NCBI RefSeq assembly: GCF_003334255.1
Contig: NZ_QOWU01000143.1
Strand: one strand, 5' to 3'
Length of the DNA stretch: 1,903 nt
DNA from: Escherichia coli
Lineage (GTDB): Bacteria > Pseudomonadota > Gammaproteobacteria > Enterobacterales > Enterobacteriaceae
The notes below the pieces were generated by a model, which did not search any database, was not told the origin of the DNA, and saw nothing but the letters and a program-made list of their open reading frames with translations. The translations under genes were made by a program, and so were the position numbers. The stretch's first letter is position 1, and each line of letters opens with the position of its first letter. This document shows positions 66 through 1,646 of this stretch, one piece after another.

Positions 66-299
66 TTAGCGCTTATGGGACTGCATCCCCCGCGGTCCCT
101 CCATCAGAGCCCGGTATCGACGGTAATCCTCCTCCGTGACACCCCACTGAGCGGCCTGTTGCTGCAGCGCCTGTGTGGTGGTACTGACCTGCGAAGAGGC
201 CTGCGTGCGTGTGCCCTCGGGCGCACTCTCCCGTACAGCAGCCACCGTCTGCAGGGAAATGAGCAGCATGAGCACCGGTGACAGATTCTTCATTTTCAT
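66..299 (-). CDS. Small Sec-secreted protein (77 aa precursor, ~56 aa mature), function unknown
   Basis: ORF 66..299 (-). ATG 299-297 lies 4 nt after the upstream stop (TGA, 306-304); SD GGAG is 7 nt upstream within the previous gene. N-terminus MKMKNLSPVLMLLISLQTVAA|V looks like a Sec signal peptide with an AXA-type cleavage site (VAA). Mature part is Gln/Thr/Ser-rich, then a charged C-terminus (GVTEEDYRRYRALMEG). Short length lowers confidence. Confidence 0.6.
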   Translation of the reverse strand: MKMKNLSPVLMLLISLQTVAAVRESAPEGTRTQASSQVSTTTQALQQQAAQWGVTEEDYRRYRALMEGPRGMQSHKR

Positions 300-303
300 T
301 TCA

Positions 304-1071
304 TCACTCCACCATGACCCGGACCTGACGTCCGTTCACCCGGAACGAGGCTTCTCCCCGTCCGGCACGCTCAAGCATCCAGCCGGCCGTGCTCTCCCCT
401 TCACCCAGCAGCGTCACATCTGAAAGACGGGTAAATCCACGGGGAGCCACCGCAGCATATGTGCGTCCGCCACGCTGCTCCGTGCCTGTCAGCACAAACG
501 GTGCGCTGCGGCTGATAACTGAAATGCCGGAAGAGCCCTTTTTCTGGCGTGGCGTGACCGCCGGTGTGCTCTTCACCGTGCCCGTTCCTTTCGCAGATGA
601 CGGTGATACCGGGGTGAATGGCGCCTTCTCCAGCTTCTCCAGTCGCAGGTCATACGCACGAAGCGTTTCTCCCTGCTGCGCCAGCGTGGCCTGCAGTGAT
701 GCCAGGCTGGCGGCCATCTGACCAGTGCGTGCATGCTCTTCCTCCGTCAGTACAGGTCGTTGCTCCAGCAATGTCAGTCGCTCCGTCACGCTTTTCAGCT
801 GTTTTTTGGTTTCAGCCAGCCGGGACCTGAGCGGTTCAAGCTCACTTCCCGACAACGCGAGAGCATCTGAATACGTTTTCATTTGCCCCTCCAGTGCGGC
901 AATGCGTTCATCCTGCTCCCCGCTGTAACGATAGAGGCCGCAAACCGCCAGAATGGTCGCAACCAGAACGGTCAGTACAAATCCCACGGAAAGCATGGGT
1001 GACACACAGGTCCACCCATCAAGAGGAGATGAATGCACTGACGGTAATGTCTTCTGTTTTTTTTCACTCAT
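304..1071 (-). CDS. Bitopic membrane protein (255 aa): short cytoplasmic N-terminus, one TM helix, long coiled-coil region, Ser/Thr/Pro-rich linker, small C-terminal domain. Family unassigned.
   Basis: ORF 304..1071 (-). Start ATG 1071-1069 overlaps the upstream stop (ATGA); SD GGAG lies 8 nt upstream inside the lipoprotein gene. Lys-rich N-terminus MSEKKQK, then a single hydrophobic segment PMLSVGFVLTVLVATILAVCGLY (about residues 25-47, nt ~931-999). Residues ~52-140 are Leu/Ala/Glu/Lys/Gln-rich with heptad-like spacing, ending in LRLEKLEK. Linker PFTPVSPSSAKGTGTVKSTPAVTPRQKKGSSG, then a ~70-aa C-terminal domain. Confidence 0.8.
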   Translation of the reverse strand: MSEKKQKTLPSVHSSPLDGWTCVSPMLSVGFVLTVLVATILAVCGLYRYSGEQDERIAALEGQMKTYSDALALSGSELEPLRSRLAETKKQLKSVTERLTLLEQRPVLTEEEHARTGQMAASLASLQATLAQQGETLRAYDLRLEKLEKAPFTPVSPSSAKGTGTVKSTPAVTPRQKKGSSGISVISRSAPFVLTGTEQRGGRTYAAVAPRGFTRLSDVTLLGEGESTAGWMLERAGRGEASFRVNGRQVRVMVE

Positions 1072-1646
1072 TTTTTAAGCTCCGCTCCTGCGCCCCTGAC
1101 ACCGGCCGGTACCGGCGCCAGCTGGCCCGGCGGCAACTGATAACCTTCCCGCAGGCTGTGACAGACAACCCGCTGCACATCATCAACTTCAAGTTGCCAC
1201 GCCGGACCGGCCATCATCTGCAGGGCGGTACGCAACCTGAGCGGCCCCGTCTGATACTGCACTGCCGGCAACGCCTGACGATAAAGCACCCCGTTGGCCG
1301 GTCCGGTGGCACAGAGCGTGTAGCCCGACTGTTTCAGGGCATAACGCATCGCATCTGCCACCGTCGGCTTCAGGGATGCCGGAATACGGATGTCAATCAC
1401 CTGGGAAAGGGGATCCCGCTGTACCGCATCCGGATGAGTGTTAACCAGCAGATAGCGGTCATAACGCACCACCTCGGGCACAGTCGTCCCAGCGTACATA
1501 TCAGGGCTGGCCGGACGGACATTATTGCTGACCGTCACCGACGGTACCGGAACAGCCGCATCCCGCTGCAGCAGTTTTTGCTGCCCCTGACAGCCAGTCA
1601 GAAGTACGCAGGCGGACAGCACGGAAAGAAGAAGGGATGTTTTCAT
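1068..1646 (-). CDS. Predicted lipoprotein (192 aa), probably outer-membrane sorted; first gene of a three-gene envelope operon. A conjugation/pilus-associated role (PilL/TraV/VirB7/DotD-like) is hypothesis only.
   Basis: ORF 1068..1646 (-). ATG at 1646-1644 is preceded by SD GAGGT (1656-1660) with 9-nt spacing. N-terminus MKTSLLLSVLSACVLLTG-C has a positive n-region, hydrophobic core and lipobox L-T-G-C with Cys19 (codon 1590-1592); Gln at +2, so no Asp inner-membrane retention signal. Pro/Gly/Ala-rich C-terminal tail (QLPPGQLAPVPAGVRGAGAELKK). Composition is protein-like, unlike the R/H/C-rich antisense frame. Stop TGA overlaps the next start (ATGA at 1068-1071). Confidence 0.8.
   Translation of the reverse strand: MKTSLLLSVLSACVLLTGCQGQQKLLQRDAAVPVPSVTVSNNVRPASPDMYAGTTVPEVVRYDRYLLVNTHPDAVQRDPLSQVIDIRIPASLKPTVADAMRYALKQSGYTLCATGPANGVLYRQALPAVQYQTGPLRLRTALQMMAGPAWQLEVDDVQRVVCHSLREGYQLPPGQLAPVPAGVRGAGAELKK

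Follow-up and report, generated by a model that had tools for sequence, protein, structure and literature searches.

The head of a probable MPF_G transfer operon in Escherichia coli, with an insertion-truncated third gene and a putative DotF-like second gene

Here we have analysed a 1,903-nucleotide stretch of Escherichia coli DNA (contig NZ_QOWU01000143.1 of RefSeq assembly GCF_003334255.1; hereafter the window), which very probably represents the promoter-proximal end of a GI-type (MPF_G) type IV secretion system (T4SS) operon belonging to an integrating conjugative element (ICE) of the SPI-7/PFGI-1/ICEclc family. Its three genes all lie on the minus strand. The first, at 1068-1646 (192 aa), is a pilL2/iceB7-type gene that opens the ICE T4SS operon and whose predicted product is an outer-membrane lipoprotein carrying a DotD/VirB7-like N0/STN domain; the second, at 304-1071 (255 aa), encodes a bitopic inner-membrane protein that we read as DotF-like; and the third, at 66-299 (77 aa), is a TIGR03759 gene cut short by an insertion sequence (IS), with its native codons 1-74 at 78-299. 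A preliminary description of the window, drawn up from its letters without database searches, had suggested that a GI-type ICE transfer region might begin here, with a PilL-like lipoprotein gene at its head, and this proposal is borne out both by the family assignment of gene 1 and by the full MPF_G gene set found in near-identical loci.

Gene 1 matches the NCBIfam model TIGR03748 (conj_PilL, the PilL2 of PFGI-1 class ICEs) at 128 bits (E 1.4e-37), residues 60-162 aligning with positions 1-104 of a 105-position domain whose curated cutoff is 64.15 bits. In a megablast comparison with 5426 complete E. coli genomes, window bases 77-1903 proved 100% identical to strain STEC2018-553 (locus L001), and at least 80% of the window was present in 54 of these genomes. 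The RefSeq coding sequences (CDSs) of the STEC2018-553 locus have the same coordinates as all three of our gene calls and are labelled, in order, 'PilL N-terminal domain-containing protein', 'hypothetical protein' and 'TIGR03759 family integrating conjugative element protein'. Downstream of the trio in that strain follow an SLT transglycosylase, TIGR03765, a restriction-endonuclease-like protein, TraD, TIGR03747, RAQPRD and TIGR03758/45/50, and then PFL_4703, TIGR03749/52/51, a conjugative transfer ATPase and TIGR03757/56; upstream lie Ssb, the replication proteins STY4534 and STY4528, topoisomerase III, ParB, a SPI-7-type DnaB and ParA. A relative with 98.8% identity (locus L002) adds a tyrosine integrase and a TraG_N-like protein, one at each end. 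Beyond the 1.9 kb covered by the window, both loci have a VirB4-like ATPase, TraD, TIGR03745-03757, an integrase and SPI-7-type replication and partition genes. The STEC2018-553-type locus is a complete SPI-7/PFGI-1/ICEclc-family ICE with an MPF_G T4SS, and its transfer operon begins with the trio. The same gene order (PilL, gene 2, TIGR03759, SLT, DUF2859, TraD) is repeated in Salmonella SGI4, in Pantoea, Serratia, Klebsiella, Pseudomonas and Stutzerimonas plasmids, and in metagenome contigs. As a side observation on the STEC2018-553 T4SS block, a pseudogene of iha (siderophore receptor/adhesin) lies between TIGR03757 and the ATPase operon (L001 2626-4716); it is cargo or an insertion and is absent from L002.

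The compact layout described earlier for the three genes can be read directly from the sequence. The TGA stop of pilL overlaps the ATG of gene 2 in an ATGA at 1068-1071, and a gap of 4 nt (300-303) separates gene 2 from gene 3. Each downstream gene has a GGAG Shine-Dalgarno site embedded in its predecessor, that of gene 2 within the 3' end of pilL (1080-1083, 8 nt from the ATG) and that of gene 3 within the 3' end of gene 2 (307-310, 7 nt from the ATG), while an AGAGG stands ahead of pilL itself at 1657-1661. Because the RefSeq calls coincide with ours and the 4-nt pilL/gene-2 overlap recurs in 12 of 14 diverse loci, the three-gene arrangement is real and conserved rather than a product of chance. 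The export signals that had been noted are likewise present: a lipobox in gene 1, a single transmembrane (TM) segment in gene 2, and a Sec-type N-terminus, MKMKNLSPVLMLLISLQTVAA, in gene 3.

PilL begins with the lipoprotein signal MKTSLLLSVLSACVLLTG-C19, its lipobox reading L-T-G-C19, and both G18 and C19 are invariant in 13 diverse homologues, as are two further cysteines, C112 and C162 (window about 1161-1313). Its conserved domain has the N0/STN (DotD-like) fold, which we liken to DotD, Xanthomonas VirB7 and BfpG. In the structural comparison, the N0 domain of EscC scored 7.6, the lipoprotein of the BfpB-BfpG type IVb pilus (T4bP) complex 7.5, DotD 7.2, the signalling domains of TonB receptors 6.4-6.8, the globular domain of Xanthomonas VirB7 6.5, and the N0 domains of GspD and PilQ 5.7-6.4; this agrees with the result for ICEclc Orf73676 (Daveri et al. 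2023, PMC10018362). In our reading, PilL2/IceB7 is an outer-membrane lipoprotein whose N0/STN domain takes the VirB7/DotD role in the outer-membrane core complex. The most conserved stretch of the protein, PEVVRYDRYLLV (residues 57-68, window about 1443-1478), lies just N-terminal to the N0 domain and is modelled in isolation with a predicted local distance difference test score (pLDDT) <50. This segment is reminiscent of the 'lid' strand of DotD, which needs a partner.

The product of gene 2 has a short, basic N-terminus followed by one strong hydrophobic stretch (residues 26-44, Kyte-Doolittle 19-mer score 2.57), corresponding to a TM helix at about residues 26-46. The AlphaFold2 (AF2) model, built from 113 sequences, continues from the membrane into the periplasm with a helix spanning residues 25-103. 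Another helix covers residues 110-149, and beyond a disordered linker (150-190) the C-terminus forms a beta domain (192-254) modelled at a pLDDT of about 96. The C-terminal domain is a small two-sheet beta-sandwich of the GspC-HR/PilP/DotF type, here carried on a membrane-tethered periplasmic protein. Profile searches, proposed earlier as a check on all three products, placed gene 1 in a family and failed to do so for gene 2. Pfam, applied to all three proteins and to an alignment of 113 gene-2 family members, yielded nothing beyond coiled-coil noise: it gave no match to gene 2 at E <= 0.001, the few matches among the 113 family members being to generic coiled-coil families and none to GspC, PilP or DotF, and no NCBIfam model matched either the whole protein or the isolated C-terminal domain. 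Searches of PDB sequences with PilL and with profiles of gene 2 and of the C-terminal domain returned designed or generic coiled coils or nothing, the C-terminal domain profile having no match. A TraP_IncI1 match (E 0.01, 15.5 bits against a cutoff of 135) is confined to the coiled coil, and we gave it no weight.

A profile search of 1.84 billion representatives shows how widely this unnamed family is distributed. It comprises 248 clusters (about 250 at 50% identity), mostly of 210-300 aa, and shares a strongly conserved C-terminal domain of about 65 residues. In every locus examined (E. coli, SGI4, Pantoea, Serratia, Klebsiella, Pseudomonas, Stutzerimonas and metagenome contigs) the gene stands directly upstream of the TIGR03759 gene, and in most of them directly downstream of pilL. 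Its members are annotated variously as 'hypothetical', 'Tat signal', 'DUF2275' and 'methyl-accepting chemotaxis protein', and the last three labels look like misannotations of one uncharacterised family. In this regard, a second enterobacterial branch (E. coli/Salmonella paralogues P0016-P0120), ~42% identical to gene 2, is widely annotated 'Tat pathway signal sequence', a label owed to a TTRRRSLLRG motif before the TM helix.

The closest experimental precedent for the trio is ICEclc, in which the corresponding genes have been deleted and imaged. There, orf73676 (conj_PilL, DotD-like) has been renamed IceB7, its deletion abolishes transfer, and the envelope foci formed by IceB7-mCherry require both IceB9 and Orf62755; orf73029, which is unmatched and holds the same operon position as gene 2, was described as 'PilP-like' and can be deleted without effect on transfer; and orf72295 (TIGR03759) is thioredoxin-like (Daveri et al. 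2023, PMC10018362). The two systems agree in the order and position of the trio at the head of the transfer operon, in their NCBIfam assignments (conj_PilL, none, conj_TIGR03759), in the predicted signals (an SPII lipoprotein signal in gene 1 and an SPI signal peptide in gene 3), in the reported folds (DotD/STN, PilP-like, thioredoxin-like), and in the genes that follow (a VirB1-like transglycosylase, DUF2859 and TraD). They differ in that the window belongs to the enterobacterial SPI-7/SGI4-like branch, that gene 2 is 255 aa long as against 216 aa for orf73029, and that gene 3 of the window has been destroyed by an IS. The conjugation system is therefore already known, annotated and in part characterised experimentally, and with two of the three genes covered by NCBIfam models and their ICEclc homologues studied directly (PMC10018362), the idea that the window might hold a novel or poorly characterised module falls away.

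For gene 2, the Dot/Icm system of Legionella offers an instructive parallel. DotF, a protein of 269 aa, has a 50-aa cytoplasmic N-terminus and one TM segment, the remainder being periplasmic (PMC3676331); residues 208-266 make up a beta domain of six strands, which its authors likewise related to GspC and PilP and through which DotF binds both DotH (VirB9-like) and Dis3 within the periplasmic ring and the outer-membrane cap (PMC8486379). Deleting dotF causes only a partial defect (PMC8486379, PMC3676331), and DotF shares with ICEclc orf73029, at the gene-2 position, the property of being non-essential. The topology of DotF, its beta domain, its binding of DotH and Dis3 and its partial deletion defect lead us to regard the gene-2 protein as an accessory subunit akin to DotF. 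Gene 2 is coupled translationally to gene 1, and its product, which combines an inner-membrane anchor, a long helical periplasmic spacer and a C-terminal beta-sandwich, would, by analogy, most likely act like DotF as a peripheral, non-essential subunit; its beta domain would dock on the periplasmic/outer-membrane ring, the candidate partners being either the VirB9-like IceB9 or an N0 domain, and would thereby link that ring to the inner membrane. It is possible, and we put it forward tentatively, that the gene-2 family as a whole is the DotF-equivalent of GI-type ICE T4SSs, a spacer that places a GspC-HR-type domain on the VirB9-like ring. The parallel has its limits: there is no detectable sequence similarity between the proteins, dotD and dotF are neither adjacent nor coupled in Legionella, DotF has DotH and Dis3 as partners whereas the contacts of its gene-2 counterpart are only candidates, and MPF_G is another T4SS lineage than MPF_I.

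A different partner for gene 2 is suggested by type II secretion systems (T2SSs) and type IV pili (T4P), in both of which the HR/PilP fold binds N0 domains. The gene-2 protein could behave like GspC or PilP on a secretin, its HR-type domain binding the N0-like domain of the co-translated PilL to form a 1:1 tether between inner and outer membranes. Such a tether would explain the conserved ATGA coupling, and it draws on the N0 fold of PilL as well as on the retention of the 4-nt overlap in 12 of 14 loci; we nevertheless regard it as unlikely. The known binding of N0 domains by the HR/PilP fold prompted a docking test of the two proteins, run as an AF2 model of the fusion PilL(40-172)-(GGGGS)4-gene2(186-255), which has a 20-residue linker, using 13 paired rows, taken from plasmid records and encoding contigs, together with unpaired homologues; a scan of viral contigs for paired PilL/gene-2 loci found no relatives. 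Both domains folded confidently, and the predicted template-modelling score (pTM) of 0.47 is about that of two undocked domains, a negative but weak result given the shallow pairing, the makeshift linker and pTM as the sole readout. Such an outcome fits the Dot/Icm precedent, where the DotF domain, in the closest T4SS analogue, contacts the VirB9 homologue DotH together with Dis3 and not DotD (PMC8486379). A tether to PilL also sits poorly with loci that have a pilus cluster, in which pilus genes separate gene 2 from pilL. Gene 2 also differs from the GspC HR domain and PilP themselves: none of the Pfam models of these families matches it, PilP is a lipoprotein rather than a TM protein, GspC has an extra C-terminal PDZ or coiled-coil domain, and the ICE offers no secretin as a binding partner. 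Co-folding had also been suggested in the preliminary description as a check on a sub-complex of all three proteins; the fusion of PilL with gene 2 gave no confident docking. A stoichiometric complex of these two is one that can only be inferred, and a three-protein version does not follow, since gene 3 is an IS-truncated gene and not a small secreted subunit.

The loci with pilus genes bear on another explanation, by which PilL and gene 2 would be leftovers of a type IVb mating pilus of the R64/PAPI-1 type, with PilL partnering a secretin in the manner of TcpQ/BfpG and gene 2 serving for alignment like PilP or PilM. In four loci the gene-2 homologue lies away from pilL and follows type IVb pilus genes (Shufflon_N/PilV and a prepilin peptidase), the pilus-gene stretches ahead of it covering L005 1-912, L016 1-1224, L017 1-1572 and L018 1-1682. 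This is the position of pilM2 in PAPI-1, where the pil2 operon runs pilL2N2O2P2Q2R2S2T2V2M2 with pilM2 last (PMC3984277), and from this likeness of position gene 2 may correspond to pilM2. The name of PilL, the NCBIfam description 'type IV pilus protein PilL2' and the PilP fold of gene 2 point the same way. A pilus remnant is nonetheless quite improbable: the E. coli ICE and ICEclc keep both genes without adjoining T4bP secretin, pilin, assembly ATPase or platform genes, and ICEclc no longer conjugates once iceB7 is deleted, the foci of IceB7 requiring the VirB9-like IceB9 (PMC10018362).

Several points weigh against our reading of the window as the head of an MPF_G operon with a DotF-like second gene, and most of them concern gene 2. 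Its relation to DotF, PilP and GspC is a modelled likeness at the level of the fold, in a small domain, with no relation detectable in sequence, and the fusion with PilL gave no confident docking. Gene 2 has been equated with orf73029 by position and reported fold rather than by direct sequence comparison. The window carries these three genes alone, the ICE around them being taken from identical and related loci, and the roles assigned to parts of the E. coli element are carried over from data on homologues.

Gene 3 requires a correction to the preliminary description, which had taken it for a small secreted protein. The 77-aa open reading frame (ORF) is a truncation artefact, a fragment of a TIGR03759 member rather than a member: its residues 1-74 are identical (74/74) to the N-terminus of the 240-aa WP_001681757.1, the TIGR03759 protein of an intact locus, and its last three codons and TAA stop (66-68) are terminal repeat sequence of the IS. 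The ORF accordingly scores 31.7 bits against TIGR03759, over positions 3-35 of a 200-position model, below the curated cutoff of 126.4 bits, whereas the intact orthologue reaches 259.4 bits; the intact protein's only CxxC, CGTC at residues 157-160, is lost from the window ORF, which ends at native residue 74. That the ORF might still be a genuine small secreted protein, as it runs from an ATG behind a Shine-Dalgarno site to a stop codon and starts out like a signal peptide, is already refuted by the junction alignment, its stop lying within the IS421/IS186 terminal repeat and a 205-266-aa gene occupying its place in 18 of 18 related loci. In its intact form, gene 3 encodes a 240-aa secreted thioredoxin-like (CxxC) protein that would help to fold disulfide-containing periplasmic parts of the T4SS, and the IS186/IS421 insertion at codon 74/75 leaves a 77-aa stub bearing a signal peptide and devoid of the catalytic domain. 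PilL may itself be a disulfide substrate of the operon's thioredoxin-like proteins, since it has two invariant cysteines outside the lipobox and the same operon encodes the thioredoxin-like TIGR03759 and TIGR03765/DUF2859; the loss of TIGR03759 could then affect PilL.

The element responsible occupies positions 1-79 on the minus strand as the terminal part of an IS421/IS186 (IS4-family) copy, with the IS/ICE junction at 77-79 and the transposase ATG at 22-20, the encoded N-terminus reading MNYSHDN. Hundreds of plasmids and chromosomes have IS421 copies that match the window from base 1 to 92-103 at 93-97% identity, and in a three-way alignment identity to the IS runs as far as base 79 and identity to the ICE sets in at base 77. 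The assignment draws on the terminal sequence, the transposase N-terminus and a GGGG(N7)CCCC insertion site, with the window covering only the first 77-79 bases of the IS. Within the TIGR03759 gene of STEC2018-553, the uninterrupted target reads GGGG-ACTGCAT-CCCC (L001 19998-20015), which is the reported IS186 target motif, GGGG(N6/N7)CCCC (Lee et al. 2016, PMC5009759), and therefore marks a bona fide transposition event. None of the 5426 complete E. coli genomes has the junction, which makes the insertion specific to the source strain. The transposase is oriented as the operon. The IS probably has a polar effect on the transfer genes downstream of it (transglycosylase, TIGR03765, TraD and others), and it probably disables this copy of the transfer operon.

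Upstream of pilL, an intrinsic-terminator-like hairpin at 1740-1768 on the minus strand (1768-1748, an 8-bp stem with 6 GC pairs, followed by a T8 run) lies between pilL and an Rpn-like gene. This hairpin ends the Rpn-like gene and fits with pilL being first in a new transcription unit. A sigma-70 scan of the 1647-1740 leader found no consensus promoter upstream of pilL; activator-dependent promoters in this ICE family are compatible with such an absence, which itself proves nothing. Rfam at E <= 1 gave four matches, all far under their gathering scores. The Rpn-like gene, of the Rpn nuclease family (putative transposase), enters the window on the minus strand with its 3' end at 1800-1903; it is a 122-aa C-terminal fragment (RefSeq CDS L001 21724-22092), gives a weak TIGR01784/RpnA match and lies outside the T4SS module. 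In STEC2018-553 this fragment adjoins a full-length Rpn paralogue, the two together spanning L001 21724-23089, and in most other E. coli copies of the locus the megablast match is broken in two at this region, probably because of Rpn paralogy. An antisense ORF on the plus strand (894-1673, 259 aa) was rejected as a shadow ORF of GC-rich coding sequence: it spans the pilL/gene-2 junction, overlies two annotated, conserved minus-strand genes and has no RefSeq annotation.

The value of the window is mostly one of annotation, as it holds a known ICE conjugation module documented in E. coli. It also offers a caution for reading genes from sequence alone, as an IS has here turned the gene of a 240-aa periplasmic oxidoreductase into what appears to be a neat small secreted protein. 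Transfer of this copy of the ICE is probably crippled by the insertion, a point of relevance to predicting the mobility of the island and its cargo. For the wider family, the middle gene of a very widespread group of ICEs, for which there is no family model, can now be described as DotF/PilP/GspC-HR-like. If the DotF-like assignment is true, the HR/N0 pairing of T2SS and T4P would become a building block shared with a third T4SS lineage, and in the pilus-bearing relatives the gene-2 protein, in the position of pilM2, might connect the T4SS with the type IVb mating pilus.

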